A stretch of 64,000 nt of DNA from contig JAYEGM010000222.1 of assembly GCA_034659075.1 (NCBI GenBank), positions 290 to 64,289 of the forward strand, in the 5' to 3' direction. Position 1 is the stretch's first letter, and each line of letters begins with the position of its first letter. Under the pieces are notes generated by a model. The model ran no database searches, was not told the origin of the DNA, and saw nothing but the letters and a program-made list of their open reading frames with translations. Positions 4,162-44,092 of the stretch are shown here, piece by piece. The DNA is from Pseudomonadota bacterium. Its GTDB lineage: Bacteria; Pseudomonadota; Gammaproteobacteria; BMS3Bbin11. The translations under genes and the position numbers were made by a program.

Positions 4162-4518
4162 GGGGGCGACCGGTTTCGACACGGGTTACAAAGCCTTCAG
4201 TGCATGTCGAGGAGCAGATCCCCTCGTAAATCCAGCTGCACAACATAGTTGCCAACGACGACAACTACGCACTAGCCGCCTAATACCGGTTAGTCCTTTC
4301 ACCTTTGCTTGATTGTGGGCGGGGATTCGAAAGGTCATCTCACACAGTATCGCGATGAGGCATGTCTGTGGCCAAGTCGTTAAACTTTAAGCAGAATCGC
4401 CGTACGTTTTCCCAGTTTGCCGGGTAGCGGCCGGTTAAATCAAAGGTGCAAACTAAGCATGTAGATCTGGAGTGTAGAGGACTTGTGGACGGGAGTTCGA
4501 TTCTCCCCGCCTCCACCA
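4162..4518 (+). ncRNA. ssrA: tmRNA (SsrA), tag peptide ANDDNYALAA
   Basis: 5-prime GGGGGCGACCGGTTTCGACA; tag reading frame gccaacgacgacaactacgcactagccgcctaa = ANDDNYALAA*; 3-prime tRNA-like end GGACGGGAGTTCGATTCTCCCCGCCTCCACCA. Confidence 0.95.
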
Positions 4519-4724
4519 ATATTTAATACAACCCCTTGTTAATCAAGGGGTTTTTATTGGGTGAAATCCAATGAATTCACTGGTGAGATACAAAGGTATG
4601 TTACCAGTGAGTTCAAGAATCCCATCTTAACCTTACAAAAAACTGTTGAAGCACTACCTGTTTGAATAAAAACATTGAATCAGAATCATCCTCAGCAAAG
4701 CTTACAATACCAATAACTTTCTTA

Positions 4725-6500
4725 TCACTTCGCACATGCAGAGCCTATTTTTTTGAATAACTCGGTAGATTCAACAGGATGGCGTAGTGAATTCTTGAAT
4801 CCTTTTCCATCAACTTTAGAGGATTTATTATTTCCAATATTGGAATGACTAAACTTGATAAGGGCTAGAATGTCCTCAGAGAATTCAGAAATTTCATTTT
4901 CATTTAATGTGTCAACAACTACGCCATATTTGCATGAACAGCTTTGAGCAGCGTATTTTTTGAGCAGCCTTGATTCATCTTCACATGACCTTACATCGCT
5001 ATTTGATAACACTGCTAGCCGCATTTTACGTGAAAGTTTTTTCGTTGCTGTAATTGAAGAAGCAACACATTCATTGTAATCATTAATGAAATAACCTCCC
5101 CTTTCCCTATAGATTTCCGTGTATTTAATAATATTTTTTGGAAGTTTTTCTCTTTCAATCTTCGCTTTGGCATATAACTCTTTTCTTTCCTCGTGACACT
5201 TTTTATATTCTGCCTGGAAATCATGAATTGTCTTATTATTTGATGCAAGACTTACATATTTTGACGGAGGCTCTTCATTCCGACAATTCATAAAATCTTC
5301 ACCTGCTTTTTTACAAGTTAGGGAAATCAATTCAGTGTCATAACATTCTGTATATCTGGTAGCGATATATTCTTCAAGCCCATCAATCTTATCAAGCATT
5401 TTTGCTTTAGATGCATATTGATTTGGTTGTAGTTTTTTCAGGTTTACTGCATCTTCCTTCCCGCTCTTACATACATCTTCTATCAGCATGTCTGCCTGTG
5501 TCTTTTGTTTTAAGTAGAGCTCCTGGTTCTCCCTCTGAACCCTATTTTTCTCTTCTTCTATACGCCTTTTCTTTATCATTTCGAGTTCAGCCAGATATCC
5601 CTTTTTCCTCTTAGCTACAAGCTGTTCGTCTAATTCCCTCATTGCATTATTAGTTGCTTTGATATTTGCCAATGCAATACTCACTCCGGACAAATACGGC
5701 AAAATCATTTGCCGTTCAATATTGCTCATTTGATAGTCGAAAGGGGCCCCTTTAGTTCTATCAAACGCATTTTTTACATCTCTTTCACCATATGTACTAA
5801 ATGCTTCTTCCGAGTAGCCAATCTGTCCTTTCATTTGCTCTAACTGTCTCTTAAATTGGTCATCCCACAATGCAAAGCTATCTAGATTAAACTCTTTCCA
5901 GCCAGTAATATTGCACCAACGAGCAATAAGCGCCTCATCATTTTTACTAACTAAATAGGCATTCTGGCAACTTTTATTGAATCTCACCCTCAAATCCTCA
6001 GCACGTTTCTTCTCAGTGGCATAGCGACCTGGAACTTCTTCTACCACAGATATCCAGTCATGAAACCAGGCAAATGGTTTTTCAGATGTATGAGGAGGTA
6101 GTTTTAACCCTGAAACATCATGATTATTCTTAGAATATTCCTTATTATTGACCTTTCTCCTGGTAATTTCTTCTGGTGTAAAAGCAGCAGCCTTGCTACC
6201 GCTATTATTGTTGTCTATAGAAGGAATTGGGGTACTTGAAATAGTCGAATTATTTCGCCTGTAACATTTCTCATATTCTTTTCTTATAAGTGCTTCAAGT
6301 TCGATATATTTGCTACCAGCATTTTTCAGGGAGATTCCCCCAGAGTCCATGGTTTTTCCGCTTTTTGCATCATCTCTACCCATCTGACAACCCTGCTTAA
6401 TCAACATATTATGTTGATTAAGCACCTCTGCAGCATTTGAGTCTGAAATCATAATGGGAACAAAAAGTAATATTGCAAAAAAAGAAACTGCAATTTTCAT
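4725..6500 (-). CDS. Hypothetical secreted cysteine-rich coiled-coil protein (signal peptide; K/E-rich; recurring [E/T]Y-x-[EK]-C motifs)
   Basis: 591 aa uninterrupted ORF with N-terminal signal peptide MKIAVSFFAILLFVPIMISDSNA; coding region roughly 35% GC against about 48% in flanks; no recognisable catalytic motifs. Confidence 0.7.
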   Translation of the reverse strand: MKIAVSFFAILLFVPIMISDSNAAEVLNQHNMLIKQGCQMGRDDAKSGKTMDSGGISLKNAGSKYIELEALIRKEYEKCYRRNNSTISSTPIPSIDNNNSGSKAAAFTPEEITRRKVNNKEYSKNNHDVSGLKLPPHTSEKPFAWFHDWISVVEEVPGRYATEKKRAEDLRVRFNKSCQNAYLVSKNDEALIARWCNITGWKEFNLDSFALWDDQFKRQLEQMKGQIGYSEEAFSTYGERDVKNAFDRTKGAPFDYQMSNIERQMILPYLSGVSIALANIKATNNAMRELDEQLVAKRKKGYLAELEMIKKRRIEEEKNRVQRENQELYLKQKTQADMLIEDVCKSGKEDAVNLKKLQPNQYASKAKMLDKIDGLEEYIATRYTECYDTELISLTCKKAGEDFMNCRNEEPPSKYVSLASNNKTIHDFQAEYKKCHEERKELYAKAKIEREKLPKNIIKYTEIYRERGGYFINDYNECVASSITATKKLSRKMRLAVLSNSDVRSCEDESRLLKKYAAQSCSCKYGVVVDTLNENEISEFSEDILALIKFSHSNIGNNKSSKVDGKGFKNSLRHPVESTELFKKIGSACAK

Positions 6501-6758
6501 GGGTACTCCAAATAGTTAATAATTATCATATTACGGATAAATACTTGCTAATTTTAGTACATATTTTTTATTTGTGGTGGAAAGAATTATCATGAAACAA
6601 CTACTAAATCAGGAAACAAATTAAGCAAGTTGGGGGTGTGTTACAAAGGTGTGTTACACCTAAATTATCGTCATAATACAGCTGTTAATTCAATAGGTTG
6701 TGTGAGAGTGGGCAACCTCTCCCTGCCTCCTCCAAATACCCCCAGCAGTGCAGCAAGA

Positions 6759-6782
6759 GCCGCCCACCAGGGCGGCCCTTTT
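6759..6782 (+). terminator. Rho-independent terminator hairpin (gccgccc-acca-gggcggc then ccttttc), possibly the ancestral ssrA terminator
   Basis: 7-bp GC stem plus T-run on the plus strand, located 21 nt after a degenerate copy of the tmRNA 3-prime end. Confidence 0.5.
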
Positions 6783-6804
6783 CACTTTATATGGTAATGA
6801 ATGG

Positions 6805-7011
6805 CTAGTCCCGGTAGTGTGGGTCCATCCAGCACTTTGGCAAACTTTCGCCTGAAGGGAAACTTACCCCCACCTTCTTGAAATTTTCTGGTTCTGCGAC
6901 ATCTTCACCGAAATCCAGACGACCTGTGAATGAATCCTTGAAAGGATCAAATACCTCTGTAGGATCCAGTACTTCGATCAGATGACCGGAATTTTTTTCC
7001 ATAAGCAACAT
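6805..7011 (-). CDS. Small acidic hypothetical protein (68 aa)
   Basis: ORF only; no recognised family. Confidence 0.3.
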   Translation of the reverse strand: MLLMEKNSGHLIEVLDPTEVFDPFKDSFTGRLDFGEDVAEPENFKKVGVSFPSGESLPKCWMDPHYRD

Positions 7012-7252
7012 GACAAGTCTCCTTTTTTAATGCTGTGTTAAAACTCAATTATAATCCGAGTCTACGTAATAGCAATGATACAGATCAACTTCACTCTTGC
7101 AGGTTTTATTAAAACCTGGCCTGTTATCTGTTTCGGCTTCTTTACTTTCCTTATTATCCGTGTTTTTTTAAATATGGACAATTCCTCAGTCAAATTCTAC
7201 CTTTAGTCATTCCCTGCTTGAATCTGCTATTATTGACAGCTACTTTTGCTAT

Positions 7253-8467
7253 ATGGATCTTTACCTGGACAAAACATTACAATTAAAACCAATGCTTGAA
7301 GCTCTGGCACATTCATTAGCGGAAACGGATTACACGATTAACCGCGCCGATGTAGTTCGCTGGCTGCGCCCCTTTGCGGCGACCACACCTACTTTTTATC
7401 TACTATTTGTAATCCCGTTTGCTCTACTGGGATATTTTGCTCTGCTGCTGTTTCCCGCTCTTTCGATCTGGCTATATTTCAAGCTGATAAACTCACTTTA
7501 TTATGCTGCCGACTACCAGCACTGGCCTGACGCCATGATGATTGGCAGCTTCCTGTTACTCAGCACATTGGCAACCATCGCGCTGGCTAGACTGGCTTTC
7601 AGAAACCCGGCAGGAAGTGCTGTCAACGATGAGAGGACGCCGGTACTTTTCCACCTTGTAAAAAAGCTGCAGCAGCACTATGGCAATCCCGGAATTTCCA
7701 GGATACTCATCACGAGAGACGATAGTATACAAATTACCCGCAACCCTGTTAGCGGATTTCCAATTAAGTTTAGAAATACGCTCGAGATAGGCATGTCTGC
7801 CTTATTATGCACCTCACCAATGGAATTTCGCGGCATGCTTGCCAGGGAAATTGCCAAACTAGCCAGTCAGAAGAACCCTGTAACAGGCTGGATGTTAAGC
7901 CTGCATCGACAGTGGGCAGATTATCATTATTATCTTGAGCGTAGCGGAGGCCTTATACTGAAGCCACTGAGCTTTTTCTTTCGCTACTATTCACCTTTAT
8001 ATAATACCGTGTCGTTCTTCGCCGCTCGTCGAGCTGAAATACGGTCAGATCGCTACACACTGGAAGTCATGGAGGACGACGATGCCATCAACGCCATCAT
8101 TCAAACAATAATATTTCAGAATTTCCTGCGGGAAAAATACTGGCCACAGGTCGTGAATCAACCGAAAGACGGAAAACACCGGGTATTCCTGCCCTATAAG
8201 AAAATGAGCCAGACTGTTCGAAAAAACGTCAAACAAACTGATATAGAACGATGGGTTGAACTGGAGCTGCGAAAATTTGGCGATACCAGCACGACTCTAC
8301 CGCCGCTAAAGACCCGCCTTCATCTGTTAGGGCATATAATACCTGTCTATCCACCAGCACTTGAAGAAACTGCAGCAGAACACTATCTTGATTTATCTAT
8401 GCAGCAGCTATTAATTAACAGTTTCGATAAAAGCTGGATTAGGAAAGCAGGAATACAGTCCTCATAA
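7253..8467 (+). CDS. Membrane protein with a degenerate M48/M56-peptidase-like fold (HExxH replaced by RExxK)
   Basis: N-terminal TM helices; segment ...NTLEIGMSALLCTSPMEFRGMLAREIAKLASQKNP resembles the zincin region of M48/BlaR1 peptidases (..gLL..l..eEl.aVlAHElgHi..), but the first His is Arg and the second His is Lys (RExxK), which would abolish zinc binding. Confidence 0.55.
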   Translation: MDLYLDKTLQLKPMLEALAHSLAETDYTINRADVVRWLRPFAATTPTFYLLFVIPFALLGYFALLLFPALSIWLYFKLINSLYYAADYQHWPDAMMIGSFLLLSTLATIALARLAFRNPAGSAVNDERTPVLFHLVKKLQQHYGNPGISRILITRDDSIQITRNPVSGFPIKFRNTLEIGMSALLCTSPMEFRGMLAREIAKLASQKNPVTGWMLSLHRQWADYHYYLERSGGLILKPLSFFFRYYSPLYNTVSFFAARRAEIRSDRYTLEVMEDDDAINAIIQTIIFQNFLREKYWPQVVNQPKDGKHRVFLPYKKMSQTVRKNVKQTDIERWVELELRKFGDTSTTLPPLKTRLHLLGHIIPVYPPALEETAAEHYLDLSMQQLLINSFDKSWIRKAGIQSS

Positions 8468-10648: not shown

Positions 10649-10921
10649 CTAGTTTACTGCATCCTTTAGTGCTTTGCCAGCCTTGAATTTAGGCATTTTA
10701 GAGGCTTTAATCTGGATAGCTTCACCAGTACGAGGGTTGCGTCCTGTACGTGCAGCACGTGCGCTTACAGAAAAAGTACCAAAGCCAACCAGCGTGACTG
10801 TATCCCCTTTTTTCAGGCTGTTTGAAATGCCTTCGAATACTGCGTCAACGGCACGGCCGGCTGCAGCTTTTGAAATATCGGCTGCTTCAGCAACCATATC
10901 TATCATTTCTGATTTATTCAC
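10649..10921 (-). CDS. hupB: DNA-binding protein HU-beta
   Basis: 90 aa [32 protein letters not shown]...[26 protein letters not shown] is canonical HU. Confidence 0.92.
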
Positions 10922-27393: not shown

Positions 27394-29748
27394 TTAAAAA
27401 TGGATTTTATTACTATATATGTCTTCAGGTTTGACGGGCCTGCTAAAGTAATAGCCCTGCCCCATATCACATCCACTCTCAACCAGGAAATCGTACTGTT
27501 CCTTCTTTTCAACACCTTCCGCTATGACACTTATCCCAAGCTCCCTAGACATATTTATGATGCCGCGAATCAAGTTGCTGTCAGCTTCATCATCCGGCAC
27601 GCGCTGAATAAAGGCCTGATCAATTTTCAGGATATCTACAGCAAAGCGGCGTAAGTAGCTCAGAGATGAGAACCCCGTCCCAAAGTCATCGATTGCTATT
27701 TTACATCCCACCTCACGTATCTGCTCCAGAATGATTTCATTTTTAATATTATTTTCCATCAAGCTATTTTCTGTTATCTCAAGAATAATTCTTTCCGGGC
27801 TGACATTAAAATACTGTAGCTGGCTTCGCAAAAATTCCACGAAGGTATCATCCTGCAACTGACGCGGTGACAGGTTTATAGTCAGGCTATATCGCCTGTC
27901 GCTCTGATTATCAAGGGCGTGCAGATGTAACAGAGCATTCCGTATAACAAACTGGCCTATCGGACGAATCAGACCTGTCGTTTCAGCCAGCGGGATAAAT
28001 TCAGCTGGTGAAATATTCGGGAAATCTGGATGTGAGAACCTCAGCAGAACTTCGAACAGCTCACTCGACTTGTTCTTAATATCAACAATGGGCTGAAATA
28101 CGAGTGAAAACCTTTCTTCCTGTATGCCCATGCGCAGGACGCTGTCAAGATGAAGCTGCTTCTCCATCCGCTCGTGCATGTCGCCTTGATAAAACTCACA
28201 GGCATCACCCCCTCGATTCTTTGCATGGTACATAGCGGTATCGGCTGCGCCAATCAATTCGTCCGGGTTTTCACCATCGGAAGGGAAGGTGGCAATTCCA
28301 ATGCTTGCAGATAGATGTATCTCATGCTGCAGGATACGAAACGGATCAGCCAGTGTGCATAGAATATTTTCCGCCACCTTTGATTCCAGAACTTCTTCAC
28401 GCGACTTATGTAATGCAACAATAAATTCATCACCACCAAACCGGCTAACCAGTGACTGCGCCTCTGTGGCATTTTTTATTCTAGTTCCCGCCTCTGCAAG
28501 CAATACATCACCGACACTGTGACCAAATGTATCATTGACCCATTTAAAACGGTCAAGATCAATAAAAATTACGGAGACTGGACCTTCCGTCCTGCGAGCA
28601 GTATCAAGTAATGAGCGAAACCTGGTAGAAAAGAAAAAACGGTTTGGTAAATCTGTCACTACGTCGTAATTTGCCTGCCTGAAAACAGTATCCTGTGCAT
28701 GTACCTGTTTACTGATATCAGTCATCACACACAAACTCGTCTCGACAGACTCATCATCACTATCAGGACTGAGGGAAATGGTATTTATCAAAACATCTAT
28801 TTTCTCTCCGGTATTCGTTTTGATACAGGTTTGGAAATTGGATAAACGACCGCCCCTTTCCAGTCTGTCTGGAACCTCATTGCCTTTACCCGGGAAGTTA
28901 TCACAAACCATTTCAGATAGTGTGAGTCCGATCAATGACGCTTTCCTGTAGCCCAGCTTCTGCAGAAAATAAACACTCGCATCGGTAACCACCCCTTTCG
29001 TATTCATAGAAAAGAGCAGTGCAGGCGTTTTATTATAAAGATCCTGGTAGCGCAATGCACTCTCTACCAGGAACTTCTGATTTTTATTAAGCGAACGCTG
29101 CATAGCATTAAAGGCTGCTGCCAGTGTGCCGAATTCATCGTTCCTTTTCCACTCTATTAATATTGTATTTTCCCCTTTGGCATTTTCCACGAGGGCATCC
29201 ATAATCTTGTGAATAGGCGCATGTATATGCTGCCGGTAGACACGAAACAGTACGGCAGTGAAAGCAATGAGCAATACAGTAAGCAGGAAAAGCAGCTTTA
29301 TCATTTCAATAATAGCCGTGTTCAGAAAATTTTCCGGTACCAACTGATAGCGAACTACAGCCGCAGTTCTTTTCTCACCTTTCGCTACTGGTTTTTTTAT
29401 TATTCTTGTGACAGGCATTGCCTGTATACTGTCTACCTTTCCGACTGCCGCAATTACATTTCCGGAGCTATCACTCAGTTCAATAAATGGAACATTATTA
29501 TTTACAGCTAATAGCGCAAGCAGTTTTTCAGCTTTGACTGAATCAAAATCCCCGATATCATCAGGTATAACCTTATCAAGCAGATGGAGGAATTGTTTCT
29601 GTGATGCATCCTGCCTGTTTAGTGCTGAATGCTTCTCATACAGAACAATTAATATTGCAGCCAGGATAAGCGTAAGTATGAGCGAAGGTATCAATACGCG
29701 TAAAAAAGCGGATAGAATTGTCTGCTTCTTGTTTGAAGAAAAAATCAT
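27394..29748 (-). CDS. Membrane sensor diguanylate cyclase/phosphodiesterase (PAS-GGDEF-EAL)
   Basis: 784 aa; N-terminal TM; GGDEF motif RFGGDEFIV; EAL-domain motifs EVLLRF, EITE, DDFGTGFSSLSYL. Confidence 0.9.
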   Translation of the reverse strand: MIFSSNKKQTILSAFLRVLIPSLILTLILAAILIVLYEKHSALNRQDASQKQFLHLLDKVIPDDIGDFDSVKAEKLLALLAVNNNVPFIELSDSSGNVIAAVGKVDSIQAMPVTRIIKKPVAKGEKRTAAVVRYQLVPENFLNTAIIEMIKLLFLLTVLLIAFTAVLFRVYRQHIHAPIHKIMDALVENAKGENTILIEWKRNDEFGTLAAAFNAMQRSLNKNQKFLVESALRYQDLYNKTPALLFSMNTKGVVTDASVYFLQKLGYRKASLIGLTLSEMVCDNFPGKGNEVPDRLERGGRLSNFQTCIKTNTGEKIDVLINTISLSPDSDDESVETSLCVMTDISKQVHAQDTVFRQANYDVVTDLPNRFFFSTRFRSLLDTARRTEGPVSVIFIDLDRFKWVNDTFGHSVGDVLLAEAGTRIKNATEAQSLVSRFGGDEFIVALHKSREEVLESKVAENILCTLADPFRILQHEIHLSASIGIATFPSDGENPDELIGAADTAMYHAKNRGGDACEFYQGDMHERMEKQLHLDSVLRMGIQEERFSLVFQPIVDIKNKSSELFEVLLRFSHPDFPNISPAEFIPLAETTGLIRPIGQFVIRNALLHLHALDNQSDRRYSLTINLSPRQLQDDTFVEFLRSQLQYFNVSPERIILEITENSLMENNIKNEIILEQIREVGCKIAIDDFGTGFSSLSYLRRFAVDILKIDQAFIQRVPDDEADSNLIRGIINMSRELGISVIAEGVEKKEQYDFLVESGCDMGQGYYFSRPVKPEDIYSNKIHF

Positions 29749-31164: not shown

Positions 31165-31554
31165 ATGTCTAATCGATTGTATAGATTGATTGCCGGATTA
31201 GCTCTGCTTACCGGGCTATATTTTGATCTGCCTGCAGTGATCTATGCATTGATTGCCGTCGTCCTTTTCGAAGGCATCACCAACCTTCGCATACCAGTTA
31301 TCATATCAGAAATGCGTAATACTGCAGGCGATGAAAATGAAGGAACTCTTGGTTTATCTCTACACCCACGGTTTAATTTTGATGCGGAGCGGGCCTGGCG
31401 ATTAGTCCTTGGCAGCGTCCTGATTCTTGTCTACGTCATATTCTTTGATGAGGTCTGGTATCTGGCCTGGTTTATGGGCTTTGCTATCCTTGGTGCCGGC
31501 CTGAGCGGAGTTTGTCCTCTATTCATTTCTTTGAAATATCTAGGGTTCAGATGA
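31165..31554 (+). CDS. DUF2892 (YgaP-like) small membrane protein
   Basis: 129 aa; two hydrophobic segments and conserved C-terminal GVCP motif typical of DUF2892; stop overlaps the start of the downstream GGDEF-EAL gene (ATGA). Confidence 0.55.
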   Translation: MSNRLYRLIAGLALLTGLYFDLPAVIYALIAVVLFEGITNLRIPVIISEMRNTAGDENEGTLGLSLHPRFNFDAERAWRLVLGSVLILVYVIFFDEVWYLAWFMGFAILGAGLSGVCPLFISLKYLGFR

Positions 31555-34004
31555 GAAAAAAGCCAGCTAACGCCAATAATATCGGTACAATCTATACCAA
31601 CCTCCCGGTAAAGATTACCGGCATTGTTTTCTGGGGTCTGGTTCTGCTCGGCCTGGTTGCATCAGCAGCATTCATCAGTTTTCTTGAGTCCCAGCTCACT
31701 GCTGAACGTGAGCTCAAACTGGATCTCACACATGACTCAGTAAAATACATATTCAGCACCCCGCAGCCTGCATCCCCCCTCAACTACAGCTCAGCGCTTG
31801 AAACTCTCCGTCAACGTTTTGGGTTTAGCGCCATGGAAGTACGCCTTAATAATGAAGTCATACAAGCCGGGGAATACCAAGCTGATCTGGATGTCAGTGA
31901 AACAACTTTCCCCGTTTATACTTCATCAAAAGACGGCATAAATTTTCAGCAGCAAGCCAGAGTAAAGATATATTTATCGCCATTGAAAGATGAAATCACC
32001 CGCTACCGGAAGAATATCCTGGTCATCATGGCGGCAATTTTTCTGGGTTTCGGTCTTATTCTTCAGGCTATTTTGAAACATGTACTGTCACGCCCCATAA
32101 TCAACATGGTACAGACTGCTGACAGTATAGTCAGGGGTAACAGCAGTATCCGCTTCGATGAAAAAAGAGAGGATGAATTCGGCTTTCTCGGTTCCTTCAT
32201 TAATCGGGTACTCGATCATCTAACGACAAAGCAGGAGGAACTTGAAAATTCGCTTTCCGGACAGCAAATTGCAGAGCAATTCCTGTCCCGTGAAAAGGAA
32301 CGTGTTGAGATCACTCTTTATTCAATTTCCGATGCTGTCATCACGACTACACGTTCCGGCCACATTGATTTCATAAACCGTGCGGCAGAGGAGCTTTCCG
32401 GACTTAATGCCACAAGCTTGCACGGCAGGGAAATCAGTGCGGCTTTAAAATTACATTTTGATGATGGCAAAACACCGATGCAGCTTCCGGTAAATGCAGC
32501 TGTACACACGAATACGGACATCAAACACGTGCCCCTCAGAGGCACATGTGTAGTTATCCGTAATAATGGGAATAAATTAAATGTCCGCTATAACGTCGCG
32601 CCAATTCTGGATCGAAAAGGCGTCGTTATGGGCAGTGTCATCGTCCTTCATGATATTACAGATACACTGGCACTGACAGAGAAGCTTTCGCATCAGGCAA
32701 CGCATGACAGTCTGACCGGTTTGTTCAACAGGGCAGAATTCGACCATCGCATTCATCTCCTGCTTAAGCAATTACAAAACTCGAAAATTCATACCAAGCA
32801 TGCGCTGTTATATATGGACCTGGATCAGTTCAAGATTGTCAATGATAGCTGCGGCCATATGGCAGGGGACCAATTGCTTAGACACATCAGTGAGCGATTA
32901 CAGCAACGTCTTTCTGATTCCGGCACTCTTGCTCGTCTGGGTGGGGATGAATTCGGCGTATTGATCGAAAATTGCAATAGAATATCTGCACATAAAGTAG
33001 CAGATGAACTAAGAAAAGAAGTTGAAAATTTTCGCTTTCAATGGCAGGAAAAAACCTTCAGCCTCGGCATAAGTATCGGTGTCGTCATGATAGATAAAAA
33101 TAGCGAAAGTCCTGACCTCCTTCTCAGCATGGCTGACCGTGCATGTTATGCTGCCAAGGATACAGGCCGCAATAAAATTTGCATGTATCAGCCCAATGAT
33201 ATCGAAATGGTCCGGCGCAAGCGTGACACGCAATGGGTATCTCGCCTGAGAAAGGCGCTGGAAACAAACAGCCTGTTACTTTCGCAGCAGGCTATCGTAG
33301 CTGTTGGATCAAAGCAGAAGCACGGCAGTATGTTTGAAATACTGGTAGGTCTTGAAAATAATGAAGGTGAACGTATACCAGCAGGTGCTTTTCTGGCTGC
33401 AGCTGAACGGTTTGGCCTGATGCCACAAATGGATCGCTGGATCATTAACAATATTTTTCTGTGGTTGTCTCGCAACCCGGAGCAGTTACATCAACTTGAT
33501 AGATGCATGATCAACCTTTCCGGGCAGACACTCAATGATGAAACTATTGCCAGTTACATCATGAAATGCATGGAAAAATCTTCCATACCTGCTGAAAAAA
33601 TATGCTTTGAAATCACAGAAACATCAGCAATTTCGAACCTCGCAAAAACCAGCCGCCTGATCAGAAACCTGAAAACTGAAGGCTGCCACTTTGCCCTTGA
33701 TGATTTTGGGTCAGGCATGTCTTCCTATGCCTACCTTAAACATTTGCCAGTAGACTACATCAAGATTGATGGTATTTTTGTTCGTGATTTAGCTGAGGAC
33801 CCTATCGATCTTGCACTGGTACACTCGATCAACGAAATCGCCCATATTCTTGATAAAAAGACTATCGCTGAATATGTGGAGAATGATGATATACTGAAAA
33901 AGTTGCAGGAAATAGGCGTCGACTATGCTCAGGGCTTCGGTATTGCCTACCCGGAAGCGATTAAGGAAGAAATACCACCGGATGGTTCACAGGCATCGCA
34001 ATAA
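31551..34004 (+). CDS. Membrane sensor diguanylate cyclase/phosphodiesterase (HAMP-PAS-GGDEF-EAL)
   Basis: Start at ATG 31551 (MRKKPANAN...), overlapping the upstream stop; GGDEF motif RLGGDEFGVL; EAL motifs EITETSAI, LDDFGSGMSSYAYL. Confidence 0.9.
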   Translation: MRKKPANANNIGTIYTNLPVKITGIVFWGLVLLGLVASAAFISFLESQLTAERELKLDLTHDSVKYIFSTPQPASPLNYSSALETLRQRFGFSAMEVRLNNEVIQAGEYQADLDVSETTFPVYTSSKDGINFQQQARVKIYLSPLKDEITRYRKNILVIMAAIFLGFGLILQAILKHVLSRPIINMVQTADSIVRGNSSIRFDEKREDEFGFLGSFINRVLDHLTTKQEELENSLSGQQIAEQFLSREKERVEITLYSISDAVITTTRSGHIDFINRAAEELSGLNATSLHGREISAALKLHFDDGKTPMQLPVNAAVHTNTDIKHVPLRGTCVVIRNNGNKLNVRYNVAPILDRKGVVMGSVIVLHDITDTLALTEKLSHQATHDSLTGLFNRAEFDHRIHLLLKQLQNSKIHTKHALLYMDLDQFKIVNDSCGHMAGDQLLRHISERLQQRLSDSGTLARLGGDEFGVLIENCNRISAHKVADELRKEVENFRFQWQEKTFSLGISIGVVMIDKNSESPDLLLSMADRACYAAKDTGRNKICMYQPNDIEMVRRKRDTQWVSRLRKALETNSLLLSQQAIVAVGSKQKHGSMFEILVGLENNEGERIPAGAFLAAAERFGLMPQMDRWIINNIFLWLSRNPEQLHQLDRCMINLSGQTLNDETIASYIMKCMEKSSIPAEKICFEITETSAISNLAKTSRLIRNLKTEGCHFALDDFGSGMSSYAYLKHLPVDYIKIDGIFVRDLAEDPIDLALVHSINEIAHILDKKTIAEYVENDDILKKLQEIGVDYAQGFGIAYPEAIKEEIPPDGSQASQ

Positions 34005-38597: not shown

Positions 38598-40427
38598 TCA
38601 GTCAGGATAAAGAGGCTCTAATACATCGCGGACAGGCTTTTCACTTGCCCTGAAAGCCAGGCCATTCCTGAATTTTTCATAAAACCGCCGGCCATCCCAG
38701 CCCGTCTCATCCGTGGCATAAAGAAACCTGTCCAGCAGGATCAACTCCTCACTGCCCTGATCCAGCAAGGCCGCCAGAGCAGGCAGGGTTTTCGGTGGGT
38801 TTTCCGGTTTCGCCAGGGCGGCCATTTCCAGCAGGACGTCTACCGCAGCATTCGCATCATTACTATTGCATGCTTCATGTAAACGCTTCTGCAACTCACG
38901 CTGGCTCCGTATATGTTCTGCATTATCTTCTGCAACAAAAGGTATATTACGGCCCTTATCAGCGTTTTTACCAGAGACTCTATTCCGTCGCAGAAACAGT
39001 GCAATAATCAAAACCAGAAGTATCAGCAACAACCAATATTTCTGCAGAGTATTACCTAACCAGCCTGTCTGCCGGCGGCTGTCAGGATCATCTACACTAT
39101 CACCTATGGGTAAATCCGACATCTGGCCTGCCTCGGCTGTATTTTCAGTCTGTACCACAGAACCAGCCGGAAGATTTTTTCCGGCTACTACATCCACACT
39201 CCATTGAGGCAGCACCGCCGTGCGTTCAACTCCTGCCTCGGTATCCCACCAGTGTAATTTCAACTCAGGGATGACCAGTGCACCTGCCTTTGTCGGCATA
39301 TAAGTCAGGTTTTGTTTGCTGATACCATATACCCAGACTCCATCAGTTTGGGTTTCCGATACAGGCTGTTCCGGATAAATCTTAACGCCATCCACCTCAT
39401 TGACGTCCAGAGTTGGCAGCAGAGTTGCCAGCATGCCTTTTGCCTGAATTGTAATGCTGCGGCTGACGGGCTCACCGACTTTAAATTCCGGTGGCTGTTC
39501 AAGCCAGCTATCATTAAGTTTCAGTTCCGCCGATGGCAGCCAGTCGCTGGCTGAGTATGAAGCTGGACGTGGCAGGACCTGAATACTTAACGCCTTACCC
39601 TGTACCGTAACGGGTCTTCCACGGTCAAACGCGCTGGCAAATGGATCGCCGCCAAAAAATCGCCGCATGCTCGGGTCAATACCAGAAGGCTGTCGCCTGC
39701 CTGCCGTCCTGCTAACCAGACTTCCGGTGAAACGTAATGGCGGTATCACTAGCTCACCGCTTTTTTCAGGAAAGATCGCATAGCGACGCTCAATAACGGT
39801 AAATGGCTTGCCGTTGCGCTGGCTGGTATAACGTTTATTCTTAGCTAGCTGTTCAACCAACGCATTATCAGGTGCAGGCTCGGACAAGCTGCCATCCAGT
39901 ATAGGCTGATCAAAAACCAGCCGCACGGTGTAGAGTATTTGCTGCTGTAAATAGACAGGCTGGTCAGATGAAGCAACTTCGGCCTCTATAAAAATGTGCT
40001 GACCATCTTTCGCGGAGGATGCCACTGGCGGCGCTGATACTGTAACCTGTATCGGATTGGTCAGTTCTTTGCCTACCCGCAGTGACGGGATATGGAGCTT
40101 GCCGCTTGTTTTTGCCTGCAAACTAATCGTCCACGATGTTTTTGACGTCATCACACCATTGATAATCTGTACCTGCTGGCTGTTACCGGTACCCAGAATT
40201 TGAAAGTCTTTCTCCAGCAGCGATAAATCAGGCATTTCACGCTGCTTGCCATCACTGCTGATGAGCAGGGTGAAACTTTCACCTTCATAGACTATCGGCC
40301 TGTCGATACTCGCCTGCACAGATGCCTGGCTGAGTGATGTCGCCGTCAATAAGCCAAGTATTACCAGAAACTGGACAAACAACTTTCCATTTCTTGAAAT
40401 CATAATTTTTCTATAGTTCCACTTCAA
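38598..40427 (-). CDS. batD: BatD-family protein (aerotolerance operon, signal peptide plus C-terminal TM)
   Basis: 609 aa; signal peptide; C-terminal TM LLLILLVLIIALFL; last gene of the moxR-DUF58-batA-batB operon. Confidence 0.75.
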   Translation of the reverse strand: MKWNYRKIMISRNGKLFVQFLVILGLLTATSLSQASVQASIDRPIVYEGESFTLLISSDGKQREMPDLSLLEKDFQILGTGNSQQVQIINGVMTSKTSWTISLQAKTSGKLHIPSLRVGKELTNPIQVTVSAPPVASSAKDGQHIFIEAEVASSDQPVYLQQQILYTVRLVFDQPILDGSLSEPAPDNALVEQLAKNKRYTSQRNGKPFTVIERRYAIFPEKSGELVIPPLRFTGSLVSRTAGRRQPSGIDPSMRRFFGGDPFASAFDRGRPVTVQGKALSIQVLPRPASYSASDWLPSAELKLNDSWLEQPPEFKVGEPVSRSITIQAKGMLATLLPTLDVNEVDGVKIYPEQPVSETQTDGVWVYGISKQNLTYMPTKAGALVIPELKLHWWDTEAGVERTAVLPQWSVDVVAGKNLPAGSVVQTENTAEAGQMSDLPIGDSVDDPDSRRQTGWLGNTLQKYWLLLILLVLIIALFLRRNRVSGKNADKGRNIPFVAEDNAEHIRSQRELQKRLHEACNSNDANAAVDVLLEMAALAKPENPPKTLPALAALLDQGSEELILLDRFLYATDETGWDGRRFYEKFRNGLAFRASEKPVRDVLEPLYPD

Positions 40428-40537
40428 TTTGTTAGCTCTGTGCAGGTTTCCCTTAAGAATTAAATCCAGGCTAACGCTGTATTAACATCCTTCTCATGTT
40501 CATCAGCGGGTAAAAACGGTCCATGATTTCTCCTCTC

Positions 40538-42463
40538 CTACCATGGCTGTGGGTCACCGGCTTTACCGGAACCACCGCCACGTTGTATATACTGATAACG
40601 TAATTTCCGACGCAGCAAACCCGCCGGATCATCTGGAATCCGTCGCAGCCACTGTTCGGCTGCTATTTGTTCTTCGGAGCTTAAGTCTTCAGCTTCAGCA
40701 GTGGCTCTTCCTTTTCCTTGCTGATCACCATTCTCAGCTTGCTGTGGCTCTGCTGATTGAGCTTCTGACTGCTGAGCTTGTTCGGTACCTTTTTCACTGT
40801 CATTTCCTTCCTGCTGCTGAGCTGCCTGTTCTTCCTGCCGCTCAGACTCTTCACTTTCTGTATCCTTTCCAGCTTGTTCAGCGGCATCAGAAAAGGCGTT
40901 TTCATTGTCTTTCTTTTCTCCAGCGCCTGGCTTGTCCTCTGCCTGCTGCTGTACCTGTCCACCGCCTGAAGAATTGGATTCATCTCCCTGCTGACTATTC
41001 TTGCCCTGCTCATCCTGCTGGTTTTGCTTATCCTGATCGCCTTGCTGCTCTTTGTTGTCCTGCTTAGACTGTTGATTCTGTTCCGATTGCTTTTGCTGCT
41101 GCAGTAATTTCTCCACGGCTTTCCTGTTGAATTCAGCATCATCCATCCCTGGCTGCTCTTTCAATGCCTTATCATAAGCATCAATCGCTTCCTGCAACTT
41201 GCCAAGTTTTGCCAGCGCATTGCCCTTGTTGTAGGCCGCGTCAACACTTTCAAGTGAAAAAAAATCTTTAACCGCTGCTTCGTAATCACCCTTACGATAA
41301 TCTGCTACACCCTTGCGCAAAGGGTCCTGCGCCAGTTCAGATGCACGCTCTGCCTCACCTGCGAGCAGGGCTTTATGCGCCTGTTGATCCTGGCGCTGCC
41401 ACAGATCCGTCATACTGAATGCCATCGCCTGTTCATTTGGCATTACTGTAATGGCGAGCAGACAAACGCTCAGCAGCCAGCCACGCCGAAATGCCAGTGC
41501 GGCCAGTGGCAGGAGCAGGATAGCCAGCCAGGGCCCGGTTTCTTTCCAGCGGGTGGCCTCAAAAGTTTCATTTTCTGTATTGCTGCGAGAACCTTTGACG
41601 CGCGCTTCCATTAGCCGGCTGATATCCGCATCACTGGCAGAAAGGCTGACATAGCTGCCACCACCGGCATTGGTAAGCTTTTGCATTGCCGGAATATTAA
41701 GACTGGTAGTTATCACGTCACCGTCATTATTGGTAAAAAAACCACCCTTTCCGGTCGGCAATGGTGCGCCCTGCTCTGTGCCCATTCCCAGTACGGAGGT
41801 AATAACCCCCTGTTTTCGGAGTTTCTCTGCGACCTCGATAGTGCGCTGATCAGTATAAGAGTCGGCCAGCAGCAGAATTTCTCCCCGTAACCGCCCTGCC
41901 TGCTGCAGCAGTTCTGCTGCCTTCAGCAAACCCAGATCTGCGCGGCTGCCCTGCACCGGCATAATGCCAGGTTTCAGTGCCGGCAACATGGCGCTAATGG
42001 TGTCAGCATCACGTGTCAGCGGTGACACAACAAAAGCATCGCCGGCAAACACCACAAGCCCGATAACGCCTTCCTGCTGTAGTTTCAGTATATCGGACAC
42101 TTTAAATCGTGCACGCTCAATACGGGAGGGTTTAAGGTCGCTGCTGTTCATGGAACGGGATAGATCAAGTACGATAACACGCGCCTGATCTGTCTGAAAA
42201 ACAGGCTGCGGAAGCTTCTCCCATACCGGGTTAGCCAGAGCGATGACTGTAATGAACCAGCCTGTCGACAGCAGCCAAAATGGCAATCGGTTGCCGCTGC
42301 CGGCTTTAGAAATTCGCAACCAGCTCAATAGCTTTTTATCAATAATACTGGACCAGGCGTCATTTTCACTGCCACCCTGCCTCAGCAGCATGCCAAGAAG
42401 GAGAACTAAGGGCAGCAGTAAATAAAGCCACTGTGGCTGTAGAAAATGAAAATTTTCAGGCAT
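40538..42463 (-). CDS. BatB/BatC-like fusion: VWA domain plus TPR repeats with a long Q/E/D-rich low-complexity tail
   Basis: Start set at MPENFHF (N-terminal TM). VWA region VIVLDLSRSM...; TPR region AYNKGNALAKLGKLQEAIDAYDKAL; about 150 aa tail rich in Q, E, D and K. Confidence 0.8.
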   Translation of the reverse strand: MPENFHFLQPQWLYLLLPLVLLLGMLLRQGGSENDAWSSIIDKKLLSWLRISKAGSGNRLPFWLLSTGWFITVIALANPVWEKLPQPVFQTDQARVIVLDLSRSMNSSDLKPSRIERARFKVSDILKLQQEGVIGLVVFAGDAFVVSPLTRDADTISAMLPALKPGIMPVQGSRADLGLLKAAELLQQAGRLRGEILLLADSYTDQRTIEVAEKLRKQGVITSVLGMGTEQGAPLPTGKGGFFTNNDGDVITTSLNIPAMQKLTNAGGGSYVSLSASDADISRLMEARVKGSRSNTENETFEATRWKETGPWLAILLLPLAALAFRRGWLLSVCLLAITVMPNEQAMAFSMTDLWQRQDQQAHKALLAGEAERASELAQDPLRKGVADYRKGDYEAAVKDFFSLESVDAAYNKGNALAKLGKLQEAIDAYDKALKEQPGMDDAEFNRKAVEKLLQQQKQSEQNQQSKQDNKEQQGDQDKQNQQDEQGKNSQQGDESNSSGGGQVQQQAEDKPGAGEKKDNENAFSDAAEQAGKDTESEESERQEEQAAQQQEGNDSEKGTEQAQQSEAQSAEPQQAENGDQQGKGRATAEAEDLSSEEQIAAEQWLRRIPDDPAGLLRRKLRYQYIQRGGGSGKAGDPQPW

Positions 42464-43469
42464 GTTTCGCCTCTCTGCGCAGGAGGAAGCTGAGCAAAGA
42501 CAGTTTCGACAAGGCCAGCAATATAGATAGAACCATTGCAATCGACAGAGGCCAGAAATACAGTTCATTTACCGGCCGGTATACTTCTACGTCATCGGCT
42601 ATCGGCTCCACCTCATCCAGCAGACTGTAGATTTGCAGCAGTGATTCAACATCCCTGGCGCGGTAATAACTGCCGCCTGTCTTGTCGGATATAGCCTGTA
42701 AGGTTTCTTCATCGATATCGGCACTGACCGCTTGCTGTCGGCCAAACAAGTCTCGAACCATGCGACTGTCGGCACCCACGCCTATGGTATAAATTCTTAT
42801 CTTTTCCTGCGCGGCAAGATCGGCGGCCTTCAGCGGCTCGATAGTGCCTGCTGTATTACTGCCATCTGTTAACAGGATTAGAACGCGATTCTGTTCAGGC
42901 TCATTGCGTAAACGTTTGACTGCCAGGCCAATGGCATCACCGATGGCTGTTTTCTTTCCGGCCAGACCTATCGCAGACTCCTGCAGCAGTGTCTTTACTG
43001 TTTTTCTGTCCAGCGTCAGCGGAGTCTGCAGATATGCCCTGTCACCGAATAGAATCAAGCCAAGGCGATCACCGACACGTCGGTCGATAAACTCTCCGGC
43101 AACCGCCTTGACCGCGGCCAGACGTGATACCTGCCGGTTGCCAATTACCATATCATCGGCTTCCATGCTGCCCGAAAGGTCGACTGCAAGCATCAGGTTC
43201 CTGCCCTGTACCGGCAGTTGGATCGCATCACCAACTGACTGGGGGCGAGCGGCAGAAACCAGCAGCAGCAGCCAGATGACAACCGCAATTATGAGCCGGA
43301 TACGGGACGCCGGTCCGGCTTCATGCTGCAGTTGTGAGTGCATGGCAGCGTAAAAGGGTACACGGATGGTAGAGATCTGCAGCTCATCCGCCTTCGGTAG
43401 CAATAGCCTGATTAATAGCGGTAAAGGCAGCAGCAGAAAAATCCATGGTAATGAAAAATTTATATCCAT
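42456..43469 (-). CDS. batA: BatA-like VWA-domain membrane protein
   Basis: N-terminal TM MDINFSLPWIFLLLPLPLLI; VWA MIDAS region LMLAVDLSGSM...TDGSNTAG. Confidence 0.85.
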   Translation of the reverse strand: MDINFSLPWIFLLLPLPLLIRLLLPKADELQISTIRVPFYAAMHSQLQHEAGPASRIRLIIAVVIWLLLLVSAARPQSVGDAIQLPVQGRNLMLAVDLSGSMEADDMVIGNRQVSRLAAVKAVAGEFIDRRVGDRLGLILFGDRAYLQTPLTLDRKTVKTLLQESAIGLAGKKTAIGDAIGLAVKRLRNEPEQNRVLILLTDGSNTAGTIEPLKAADLAAQEKIRIYTIGVGADSRMVRDLFGRQQAVSADIDEETLQAISDKTGGSYYRARDVESLLQIYSLLDEVEPIADDVEVYRPVNELYFWPLSIAMVLSILLALSKLSLLSFLLRREAKHA

Positions 43470-43612
43470 TGTTGGCTTATATTTCTAAGTCCGCTGCACT
43501 CTCACAATCTCGTCTTTCCGGCGAATGCCGGATTCCAGTGGCGGTAAAAAATAAAATACTTTCTGGATACTCGCATACGCGTGCAGGACGGTTTTTTTGT
43601 ATCGGCATTGTT

Positions 43613-44092
43613 CTAGATTACCCTCGTATTTCGTTCAATCCATTTCCTGGCCAATTGCAGCAGGCCTTCTTTGTCTACATTACTTTTATGCATATAGGGC
43701 CCGGCCTCCAGCACACTGCCTGCGCCATTGACAAAGTCACCTTCTCCGCCATGCATGTCGAGAAAAGACAGCCAGCCTTTGCCTGTCAGTGCCGCCACTT
43801 CTTTTCGCGGGTATTTGAGTAAGGCAACGCGGCGCAGCAGCGTCGACACTGATGCCAGAAATTCAGGTATTTGGTCATCAGTCACCGTTTTCGATAAATC
43901 ATCCAGTAGCAAAAATATTTCCCTTTGGGCTCTTTTCCGTCGCCAGAAACTGATCAAACGAATAGCCAGCCAGCAGAGAATCGCCACAGCAAGCAGAGCT
44001 ACTATCCACCAGCCGGGTGCCGGCGGCCAGAATTCAGGACTGGCGGGCAGATGAACGTCTCGCAATTGTAATGTTTGCTCAGCAGGATTCAT
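43613..44092 (-). CDS. DUF4381-domain membrane protein
   Basis: 159 aa; single TM WWIVALLAVAILCWLAI; conserved position between the DUF58 and batA genes. Confidence 0.7.
   Translation of the reverse strand: MNPAEQTLQLRDVHLPASPEFWPPAPGWWIVALLAVAILCWLAIRLISFWRRKRAQREIFLLLDDLSKTVTDDQIPEFLASVSTLLRRVALLKYPRKEVAALTGKGWLSFLDMHGGEGDFVNGAGSVLEAGPYMHKSNVDKEGLLQLARKWIERNTRVI

Follow-up and report, generated by a model that had tools for sequence, protein, structure and literature searches.

How does a single gene come to lie alone behind a tmRNA gene, and what might the protein that it encodes do for its carrier? The question is raised by an open reading frame (ORF) for 591 aa, read on the minus strand, in a 64,000-nucleotide stretch of gammaproteobacterial DNA, which is referred to below as the window. 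A first-pass annotation of the window had described the product of this ORF as the orphan cargo of an islet at ssrA. The locus was compared with its relatives, and all the data used come from metagenome contigs and MAGs.

The islet at the ssrA site

The segment at 4520-6735 of the window is a 2.2-kb, AT-rich, integrase-less islet, which site-specific recombination placed in the chromosome at the ssrA 3' end. Its components and immediate surroundings are the following.

4162-4518, plus strand: tmRNA gene (ssrA) with tag peptide ANDDNYALAA, the integration target (ARAGORN; Rfam RF00023, 227.7 bits)
4502-4519, plus strand: attL-like core TCTCCCCGCCTCCACCAA, the last 17 nt of ssrA plus 1 nt (direct repeat family D9)
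4520-4592, plus strand: ssrA-proximal island arm, about 89% with L024 422-495 (blastn and alignment), the cargo of L024 being different
4520-6717, no strand: inserted islet body, 2,216 bp from repeat to repeat, GC 0.361 (filled site versus the empty site of L018; composition; ORF list)
4530-4552: replacement terminator hairpin for ssrA, inside the island arm (terminator scan)
4582-4604, plus strand: tandem pair of the 10-mer GGTRWGWTAC, 63 nt inside attL (repeat D3)
4725-6500, minus strand: target CDS, 591 aa, stop codon at 4725-4727, predicted exported all-alpha protein with 14 invariant cysteines
6504-6509, minus strand: Shine-Dalgarno GGAGTA, 3 nt upstream of the ATG
6548-6562, minus strand: upstream element ATGTACTAAAATTAG with a -10-like TAnAAT box, preceding the gene at all three of its insertion sites
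6635-6657, plus strand: second tandem pair of the 10-mer GGTGTGTTAC, 61 nt inside attR
6718-6735, plus strand: attR-like remnant of the ssrA 3' end TCTCCCTGCCTCCTCCAA, 16/18 match (direct repeat and L018 alignment)
6759-6776, plus strand: displaced native ssrA terminator, GCCGCCC-ACCA-GGGCGGC then a T-run (terminator scan)
6805-7011, minus strand: orf68, small conserved chromosomal gene just outside the islet, flank marker
7253-8467, plus strand: hyp404, conserved membrane protein, flank marker for empty sites

The 18-bp direct repeat that bounds the islet is imperfect, the degenerate attR copy at 6718-6735 differing from 4502-4519 at two positions. A second copy of the core with at most 2 mismatches was obtained in 0 of 100 shuffles of the 64-kb window. 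The corresponding empty site is found in L018, the nearest relative by flanking genes (amino acid identity of 93% for hyp404, 97% for orf68 and 82% for ppiD), where ssrA is directly followed by a homologous terminator, orf68 and hyp404, without the target gene. Positions 5-92 of L018 align with 4432-4519 of the window and positions 268-586 with 6804-7119. The end of ssrA and the terminator are recovered on the far side of the islet, window 6718-6782 matching L018 75-139 with 82% identity over 66 nt (E = 9e-11). The insertion duplicated 18 bp of the ssrA end, provided ssrA with a new terminator and moved the original one 2.2 kb downstream.

The foreign composition proposed in the first-pass annotation is confirmed. 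No other 2.2-kb segment of the window has a GC content as low as that of the islet (z = -3.6), and the target CDS (GC 0.367) displays a GC3 of 0.311, the lowest among 37 long ORFs, versus a window mean of 0.496 +/- 0.058. As had also been stated, the target is the sole cargo, no other ORF being present between the att-like repeats. The islet is devoid of integrase according to the ORF list and to the absence of Pfam, NCBIfam or PHROG matches for the target, and a scan of 20 other large ORFs of the window detected none either.

L024 matches the island arm over 74 bp from its start, after which the sequences diverge, and the first 10-mer copy is present there at an equal distance from ssrA. Four copies of GGTRWGWTAC occur in the 64-kb window, all of them at the islet ends, a number reached in 0 of 100 shuffles; the two pairs are candidate arm-type sites of a recombinase. 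Neither the island arm nor the 10-mer pair has a copy in viral contigs. In other relatives, unrelated cargo is located between ssrA and hyp404, and L020 carries another ssrA remnant: the ssrA site is an integration hotspot. The flank marker orf68 is conserved at 85-97% amino acid identity in L018, L020, L022 and L024, and the ssrA loci of clade B lack both attR and orf68.

A gene under purifying selection

The GGAGTA Shine-Dalgarno is found in clades A, B and C and is replaced by GGGATT in clade D (L004/L009). The upstream element was aligned by eye in the window, L001, L004, L008, L009 and L011, and nucleotide homology with the relatives continues for 66-127 nt beyond the ATG on its upstream side. 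The frame is full-length in about 20 lineages and intact in each relative examined, barring entries truncated by short contigs. In an alignment of 16 homologues, 112 columns are invariant, including 14/14 cysteines. Pairwise dN/dS ranges from 0.24 to 0.58 (about 0.3); regionally, values of 0.24-0.35 for the folded parts contrast with about 0.75 for both the linker and the signal peptide.

Judging by this pattern of substitution, the ORF is a real gene under purifying selection. A spurious or decaying, non-functional ORF could be suspected in view of the lack of a family match, the AT-richness and the low full-length AF2 confidence. The number of lineages with an intact full frame, the invariant columns and cysteines, the dN/dS values with their domain-structured selection and the retention of the promoter-like element and Shine-Dalgarno leave this reading with practically no probability, and it was ruled out by the selection analysis.

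Family and database searches

About 20 full-length relatives sharing 52-73% identity were collected, 18 from a large protein database and 2 from GTDB genomes. All originate from marine-sediment gammaproteobacterial metagenomes or MAGs, one being labeled Arenicellales, and carriers represent 2 of the 185,579 GTDB species genomes. The designation 'orphan' is thus inexact with respect to homologues, but it holds in that nothing was found outside one narrow family: an exhaustive profile search of 1.84 billion representative proteins returned only the family itself and its own fragments.

No match for the target was obtained in Pfam, NCBIfam, PHROG or PADLOC, and none of 16 family members matched Pfam, NCBIfam or PADLOC models even at E <= 5. 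The relationship to DUF1311/LprI that had been suggested for verification received no support from any profile search, the window protein having no match at E <= 1 and the 16 members no DUF1311 match at E <= 5. Sel1/Hcp was rejected as well, with no Sel1 profile match and no PDB sequence or profile match; the PDB searches returned nothing beyond low-complexity EDS1 noise (E about 0.02). The earlier remark that no enzymatic motifs are apparent agrees with the lack of a recognisable enzymatic family in Pfam, NCBIfam, PHROG, PADLOC and the PDB. No characterised family was matched at all, and in all relatives purifying selection acts on an intact ORF. Among other candidates, a known anti-phage defence system was discarded since the target matches no PADLOC model, and a phage or plasmid origin since no homologue was retrieved from 50,697 phage records, 72,556 plasmids and the IMG/VR contigs. 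At roughly 17 loci carrying the target, no adjacent integrase or phage gene was observed. A conserved pair with the divergent upstream neighbour was also rejected, hyp404 of the window being unrelated to the FlgT_N-like neighbour of clades C and D.

Protein architecture

The product is predicted to be a modular, wholly alpha-helical protein of about 63 kDa with Sec-type export. All the segments below are encoded on the minus strand.

6432-6500: signal peptide, residues 1-23 (MKIAVSFFAILLFVPIMISDSNA|AE), the sole 19-residue window with a Kyte-Doolittle value >1.6
6246-6431: repeat R1, residues 24-85, helical hairpin bracketed by C38 and C79 and ending in EYEKCY (hhalign)
6096-6245: variable S/T/N-rich linker, residues 86-135, predicted disordered (pLDDT <50)
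5628-6095: most conserved domain, residues 136-291, predicted elongated three-helix bundle with C178 and C196
5472-5627: long charged helix, residues 292-343, the helix running on to about residue 352 (AF2 pLDDT >90)
5166-5471: repeats R2 (344-392, C344...C386) and R3 (393-445, C396...C435), Cys-bracketed helical hairpins (hhalign; AF2 pLDDT 88-97)
4728-5165: C-terminal Cys-rich helical region, residues 446-591, with C478, C506, C521, C523 and C589

The signal peptide that had been proposed is borne out by hydropathy and motif inspection. Residues 1-23 form the only hydrophobic segment and end in an S-N-A|A type cleavage motif; the small residues at -3/-1, the absence of a lipobox and the absence of any other transmembrane segment are those of a Sec-exported type I signal. 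A hydrophobic N-terminus is seen in all homologues, and the regional dN/dS of the signal peptide is 0.75. The protein is indeed rich in lysine (65) and glutamate (55), but its cysteines number 14 and not about 20. The 14 cysteines could form seven disulfides after export.

R1 and R2 align in hhalign with a probability of 95.9% (E = 6e-9, 53 columns), and R1 has predicted helices at H20-46 and H65-85. The predicted hairpin unit spans about 50 residues, follows the pattern C-x2-G-x-[DE]-D-A ... Y-x-x-C and is present in two to three copies. Y-x-x-C occurs at residues 76, 383, 432 and 475. The four instances of a recurring motif quoted in the first-pass annotation all exist in this looser form, but its strict version, [E/T]-Y-x-[E/K]-C, fits only 2 of the 4. 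In the linker, column identity drops to 0.54 with a dN/dS of 0.74. The charged stretch corresponds to a predicted helix of 61 residues, 46% of which are charged. Its description as heptad-like could not be maintained: hydrophobic occupancy of the a/d positions in residues 292-352 is 33% at best, by a simple count and not a COILS-type predictor, and a canonical coiled coil was rejected for this reason. Full-length AF2 modeling gave a mean pLDDT of 59.9, and fold searches returned only generic helical matches.

Other insertion sites and proposed lateral movement

The gene occurs in three insertion contexts, namely at ssrA, on the 3' side of tRNA-Arg(CCT) and on the 5' side of tRNA-Arg(CCT). The tRNA-Arg(CCT) inserts, of about 2.2 kb, are carried by related marine-sediment Gammaproteobacteria and display reciprocal filled and empty states: L011 has an insert of 2,156 bp relative to L017, and L017 and L004 have inserts of 2.2-2.4 kb relative to L013. 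The order of gene and tRNA is suspect in L007, whose tRNA is malformed, but the same order was confirmed in L011 and L013. No tRNA-derived direct repeat bounds the insert at the two tRNA-Arg sites. The L011 insert begins 9 nt past the tRNA, and in L013 a tandem duplication of local extent, about 175 bp, is all that was seen. At these sites, the gene may have moved by other means, for instance by homologous or illegitimate recombination. Common ends or terminal repeats are also absent across the sites, where homology is restricted to the CDS and 66-127 nt upstream (the gene plus a detectable 66-71 nt upstream in clade C, the coding region only in clade D), and a transposon-like unit was consequently rejected.

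Synonymous divergence (pS) between the window and L001 is 0.42 for the target and 0.67-0.86 for nine of the ten flanking genes. At positions with identical amino acids, the same codon is kept in 74% of cases in the target versus 44% expected, an excess of 0.53; the excess is 0.00-0.30 in the flanks, hupB aside (0.47). As hupB likewise has a low synonymous divergence, codon selection is a possible contributor. The window copy clusters with the tRNA-Arg-3' clade with 100% bootstrap and not with the other ssrA-site clade. A mosaic or recombinant window copy was dismissed, since a sliding-window identity scan gave no clear breakpoint.

The recurrence of the gene next to tRNA-Arg and its low synonymous divergence relative to the flanks point to a laterally moving, CIME-like single-gene cassette, which would spread inside a narrow lineage. 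At ssrA, a tyrosine integrase could act on the cassette in trans from a larger ssrA-targeting element; as neither an integrase or excisionase nor a circular form came to light, such mobilisation is something that we infer. Horizontal acquisition at an integration hotspot, as first proposed, is strongly supported by the empty L018 site, the 18-bp repeat, the different cargo found elsewhere and the tRNA-Arg sites.

Two other histories were considered for the islet. The gene could be a vertically inherited, lineage-specific envelope gene whose low GC reflects a K/E/N-rich composition and whose position at ssrA is coincidental. Synteny with L001, L014, L015 and L016 is indeed kept, and the identity of 64-69% falls in the flanking range (67-96%). 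This history is nevertheless largely refuted, and very improbable, given the empty site of the nearest relative with its precise ssrA-terminator junction, the att-like repeat, a GC3 of 0.31 versus 0.50 that is independent of amino acid content, the presence of the gene at three different sites and a synonymous divergence far lower than that of the flanks. Alternatively, the islet could be the remnant of a decayed prophage or ICE/IME that once possessed an integrase, with the gene as cargo of the 'moron' type (a protein for superinfection exclusion or envelope defence, for example), now fixed and immobile; the other sites would then be separate ancient integrations of related elements. The att-like repeats, the island arm shared with L024 despite different cargo and the hotspot character of the site all fit such a remnant, CIMEs have been described as decayed ICE/IME elements (PMC5704250) and ssrA islands with direct repeats are on record (PMC3146451). 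It is however at odds with the lack of homologues in the phage, plasmid and IMG/VR collections, the absence of the island arm and 10-mer pair from viral contigs, the roughly 17 gene-bearing loci without an adjacent integrase or phage gene, and a low synonymous divergence that favours recent over ancient spread. We regard it as unlikely.

Comparison with known systems

The islet resembles the Dehalococcoides vcr islands in its insertion at the 3' end of ssrA and in the direct repeat of that end (PMC3146451). With these and with the ssrA islands and prophages of enterobacteria, it has in common an atypical composition, cargo that varies among other relatives at the same site and the existence of a close relative whose site is precisely empty. 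Unlike ssrA islands that use a tyrosine integrase, it measures only 2.2 kb, contains one gene and has no mobility gene; an integrase of its own next to the att site, usual for islands integrated in t(m)RNA genes, is lacking, none being found among the 20 large window ORFs scanned. CIMEs are elements devoid of integration and transfer genes but retaining attL and attR (PMC5704250). Similarly, the islet has att-like repeats at both ends, that of attR degenerate, and neither recombinase nor transfer genes, and the att-proximal arm that it shares with L024 suggests a common parent element family. It differs from CIMEs in that these were defined in Firmicutes ICE/IME with experimental mobilisation, while the present case is read from sequence with no parent seen, and in that the cassette lacks an att duplication at the two tRNA-Arg sites.

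As for the protein, Helicobacter Hcp/Sel1-like proteins and LprI/DUF1311 are exported and all-alpha, with repeated helix-loop-helix units that are each bracketed by a cysteine pair. The target, as modeled, is likewise exported and all-alpha with Cys-bracketed helical repeats. It departs from these proteins by the lack of a sequence-profile relationship, by a Cys-Cys spacing of 39-42 residues and by the addition of a long three-helix bundle and a charged helix. Sequence identity to T. brucei HpHbR, ISG65 and GARP and to Plasmodium RBP2b is 3-11%. The similarity to such three-helix-bundle receptors is an architectural resemblance only, because the scores are no better than those of de novo designed bundles.

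Function

The account that we consider probable, with a fair margin of doubt, combines the ssrA islet, a laterally spreading CIME-like cassette and an exported, non-enzymatic envelope or extracellular protein. The sole gene of the islet possesses its own promoter-like element and Shine-Dalgarno. Its product is predicted to be composed of Cys-bracketed hairpins, a flexible S/T/N-rich linker, a three-helix bundle, a charged helix and a Cys-rich C-terminal region. Most likely, it would be rod-like and non-enzymatic, and in the envelope or outside the cell it would bind or shield something such as a phage, a toxin, or a surface or host ligand. This reading of function is drawn from the signals for export, the potential for disulfides, the evolutionary rate and the lack of a match to catalytic families. 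The benefit would be accessory and related to conflict or to a niche, which is proposed as the reason for the fast evolution of the protein. A bolder form, in which a minimal integrase-less one-gene cassette repeatedly relocates beside tRNA/tmRNA genes inside one gammaproteobacterial lineage of marine sediments and encodes a new disulfide-stapled, rod-like helical fold family that would serve at the envelope in conflict between organisms, for instance by keeping phages or toxins from entering, is unlikely on present evidence.

Other functions can be envisaged for such a product, among them the adhesin, effector or immunity-like roles put forward in the first-pass annotation. It could be a secreted or surface adhesin, or a ligand-binding receptor for a eukaryotic host or particles, to which we attach a low probability. 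It could also be a periplasmic inhibitor or immunity protein directed against peptidoglycan-degrading enzymes, which would either inhibit lysozyme in the manner of LprI/DUF1311 or confer immunity to amidase or muramidase toxins. Such a role would suit an exported protein with Cys-bracketed helical modules, the more so as the gene of clades C and D adjoins ampD-like (Amidase_2) ... SLT genes. However, DUF1311, Pfam, NCBIfam and PADLOC were unmatched by 16 members at E <= 5 and there is no PDB profile match. The ampD/SLT genes belong to the core chromosomal flank of the tRNA-Arg site, where they are present regardless of the side occupied by the gene, and the ssrA site lacks them. AmpD-type Amidase_2 enzymes are, moreover, cytoplasmic. 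An inhibitor of this kind is accordingly quite improbable.

Significance of the locus

Small islets at tmRNA genes are a well-known phenomenon, and the locus is therefore chiefly a clean and fully delimited example, in which attL, attR, the displaced terminator, the empty site of a relative and alternative cargo can be observed at one hotspot. The payload belongs to a family that has no relatives beyond itself among 1.84 billion representative proteins; predicted to be exported, with 14 invariant cysteines, fast-evolving and apparently mobile, it has the traits expected of accessory proteins of the envelope that serve in conflict or in adaptation to a niche. The occurrence of a one-gene insert of about 2.2 kb at three positions adjacent to tRNA or tmRNA genes, without recombinase, raises the question of how minimal cassettes move. 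If exclusion of phages or toxins proved to be the function, the gene would represent a new one-gene envelope module with a new helical, disulfide-stapled domain. If the bolder reading is true, the cassette would constitute a new one-gene type of envelope defence or exclusion with its own unusual mode of spread.

The islet at ssrA and its empty site

The 591-aa open reading frame described in the first-pass annotation was recovered in full (termed the target below). It lies on the strand opposite to an intact tmRNA gene (ssrA), and the two genes therefore converge. The features of the region are as follows.

4162-4518 (+), tmRNA gene, intact (ARAGORN, Rfam)
4502-4519, left islet repeat (attL), TCTCCCCGCCTCCACCAA
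4530-4552, new hairpin terminator 3' of ssrA
4582-4604 and 6635-6657, tandem pairs of GGTRWGWTAC
4725-6500 (-), target, 591 aa
6718-6735, right islet repeat (attR), TCTCCCTGCCTCCTCCAA
6759-6776, native ssrA terminator, displaced
6805-7011 (-), orf68, flank marker
7253-8467 (+), hyp404, flank marker

Using hyp404 as bait in metagenome contigs, 11 loci were retrieved. The closest relative by flanking genes, locus L018 (amino acid identities of 93% for hyp404, 97% for orf68 and 82% for ppiD), lacks the target gene: the tmRNA 3' end is directly followed by a terminator, then orf68 and hyp404. Its blastn matches to the window are:

L018 5-92, window 4432-4519, ssrA 3' part
L018 75-139, window 6718-6782, 82% over 66 nt, E = 9e-11
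L018 268-586, window 6804-7119, orf68 region

The window therefore holds a 2,216-bp insertion bounded by the repeats, and the islet is proven by the empty site in L018. No shuffle of the 64-kb window gave a second copy of the bounding repeat. The islet has the lowest GC content of any 2.2-kb segment in the window (0.361, z = -3.6) and the target, its only ORF, the lowest GC3 among the 37 window ORFs of at least 200 aa (0.311 versus 0.496 +/- 0.058), in agreement with the foreign composition and sole-cargo status first proposed.

The flank marker orf68 is a conserved small gene (85-97% amino acid identity in L018, L020, L022 and L024), always located between ssrA and hyp404 and absent from the clade-B loci L001 and L015; it has no match in Pfam, NCBIfam or PHROG. 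The hyp404 gene encodes a conserved membrane protein beside ppiD in all relatives (70-93% identity), without a family match; its translation probably begins at the internal Met14, which corresponds to the start in the relatives. Ordinary core content of the window includes a Bat-type aerotolerance-like operon (BatD, VWA-TPR, VWA, DUF58 and MoxR-AAA; 38598-46139, -) and two GGDEF-EAL sensor proteins (27394-29748 and 31512-34004).

Modular cargo and candidate arm sites

In other hyp404-bearing relatives, the ssrA-hyp404 interval contains unrelated DNA:

L019 1-3385, HsdM-like and phosphoribosyltransferase-like ORFs
L020 1-332, degenerate 61-nt ssrA remnant
L024 422-4030, 98-aa lipoprotein-like ORF and 628-aa ORF
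L025 1-2100, 620-aa ORF

This differing cargo bears out the earlier view of ssrA as an integration hotspot. The first 74 bp after ssrA, comprising the hairpin terminator and the first GGTGAGATAC, are common to L024 and the window (~89%), and beyond them the two diverge completely. GGTRWGWTAC is present four times in the 64-kb window, as one tandem pair 63 nt inward of attL and another, placed symmetrically, 61 nt inward of attR; none of the shuffled windows reached four copies. The pairs are candidate recombinase arm-type sites. In L024 the first copy (485-494) is equally far from ssrA and lies exactly where homology to the window stops; the sites may be recombinase arm sites or mark a recombination breakpoint.

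Islands at ssrA with bounding direct repeats have been described (PMC3146451). The 20 other large ORFs of the window encode core functions, with no integrase among them. The islet would be mobilised by an integrase supplied in trans, which would make it CIME-like (cis-mobilizable element) under the definition of PMC5704250.

Other insertion sites and lateral spread

Relatives of the target gene occupy the ssrA site and two others:

Clade B (P0005-8, P0011), between hyp388 and ssrA as in the window, without attR or orf68
Clade C (P0002, P0004, L013), gene converging on the 3' end of tRNA-Arg(CCT)
Clade D (P0014, P0015, P0017), between the 5' end of the same tRNA-Arg(CCT) and an ampD-like gene

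For P0009, assigned to clade C, the contig stops just past the gene with the tRNA out of view, and the upstream genes fit the clade C arrangement. The two tRNA-Arg arrangements act as mutual empty sites, with an insert of 2,156 bp starting 9 nt beyond the tRNA in L011 versus L017, and inserts of 2.2-2.4 kb in L017 and L004 versus L013. These inserts are not flanked by repeats derived from the tRNA. From one site to another, only the target CDS and 66-127 nt upstream of it are homologous. The Amidase_2/SLT neighbours were rejected as partners of the target, being core genes of the tRNA-Arg region. In L013 (5576-5858), the spacer that separates the target gene from tRNA-Arg is covered by a ~175-bp tandem duplication, in which 19 nt of the tRNA 3' end persist as a remnant (TGGTGCCCCGGAGCCGATT); it looks like a footprint of recombination at this tRNA. 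In L007 (4788-4865), the tRNA-Arg gene has a malformed 5' end with GCTGGATAGAG duplicated internally, and several of the genes nearby are broken into fragments; an error in metagenome assembly is the probable cause.

Synonymous divergence was compared between the window and L001, which share the ssrA context. Nine of the ten flanking genes are saturated (pS 0.67-0.86, dN/dS 0.01-0.10) whereas the target displays a pS of 0.42, a dS of 0.62 and a dN/dS of 0.33. In a composition-aware test, the target retains the same codon at 73.6% of identical amino-acid positions versus 43.7% expected, an excess of 0.53; the excess in the flanks is 0.00-0.30, except for the short gene hupB (0.47). The latter (10649-10921, -; GC3 0.34, pS 0.35) is the only flank resembling the target here, which presumably reflects strong selection on the codons of a highly expressed gene. 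Neighbour-joining places the window copy with clade C at 100% bootstrap and not with clade B; the rooting is uncertain, and the tree by itself could therefore be accounted for by as few as two relocations. Together with the empty site and the three insertion sites, the low pS upholds the proposed horizontal acquisition: these comparisons demonstrate insertion, hotspot and lateral movement of the gene.

Sequence, constraint and predicted architecture of the target

The target contains 65 K, 55 E and 14 C, the earlier figure of about 20 cysteines being an over-count. Its sole hydrophobic stretch, residues 1-23, ends in SDSNA|AE without a lipobox cysteine, which fits a type I Sec signal and the signal peptide initially noted. 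Within the CDS, close to the boundary of the signal peptide, two perfectly matching 15-nt arms separated by 1 nt (TGCTTAATCAACATA / TATGTTGATTAAGCA; 6394-6424) form an inverted repeat.

The 16-sequence family alignment has 112 invariant columns, including all 14 cysteines. Pairwise dN/dS (Nei-Gojobori) is 0.24-0.58; by region, it is 0.24-0.35 in the folded parts, 0.74 in the S/T/N-rich linker (residues 86-135) and 0.75 in the signal peptide. An upstream element, ATGTACTAnAATT (a -10-like box), ~60 nt before the ATG, is found in all three genomic contexts, and a Shine-Dalgarno GGAGTA in clades A-C but not D. Judged by these signals, the target is a real, constrained gene.

The suggested structure prediction yielded an all-alpha AF2 model (mean pLDDT 59.9), exceeding 90 only around residues 300-450, where a 61-residue helix precedes a helical bundle. 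Residues 136-300 modelled alone gave three long helices in two of five models (pLDDT 81.7, pTM 0.74). Profile-profile comparison (hhalign) shows residues 28-85 to be homologous to residues 334-392 (probability 95.9%, E = 6e-9, 53 columns), with a third, weaker copy at 388-445. The repeat unit is a helix-loop-helix within a cysteine pair (C38/C79, C344/C386, C396/C435) ending in Y-x-x-C, hence the recurrence of this motif. All four instances quoted earlier are present as Y-x-x-C (residues 76, 383, 432 and 475); only two of them conform to the stricter [E/T]-Y-x-[E/K]-C. The charged helix (46% charged) had been taken for a heptad-like coiled coil; hydrophobic a/d positions reach only 33% in the best register, and a canonical coiled coil is therefore not supported. 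Foldseek against PDB assigned no fold (best E = 1), and the matches are architectural resemblances only.

Family distribution and possible role

Eighteen relatives (53-72% identity) were found in a 5.8-billion-sequence database, nearly all of 589-597 aa, all unnamed and all from metagenomes or MAGs. Among 185,579 GTDB species genomes, the phyletic survey located the gene in only two, both MAGs, one labelled "Arenicellales bacterium" and the other an unclassified member of the Gammaproteobacteria. When 1.84 billion representative proteins were searched exhaustively with a HMMER profile, the only matches were the 50% cluster of the family itself and four fragments. The "orphan" label thus stands for anything beyond the family but not for the protein itself, and the family is, by these searches, very narrow rather than an orphan. 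Phage, plasmid and viral-contig databases contain no homologue. Neither single-sequence nor profile nor member-by-member searches matched anything in Pfam, NCBIfam, PHROGs, PADLOC or PDB; the suggested DUF1311/LprI relationship is therefore unsupported, and the absence of any catalytic family agrees with the reported lack of enzymatic motifs.

Seven disulfides would form after export. The export signal, invariant cysteines, lack of a catalytic family, flexible linker, dN/dS ~3- to 30-fold above that of the neighbours, and mobility point, tentatively and at less than even confidence, to a non-enzymatic, rod-like envelope or extracellular protein with a binding or shielding role and an accessory, conflict- or niche-related benefit. 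The small ssrA islet is a conventional kind of genetic feature, here well delimited, and its cargo is a novel, narrowly distributed protein predicted to be exported.
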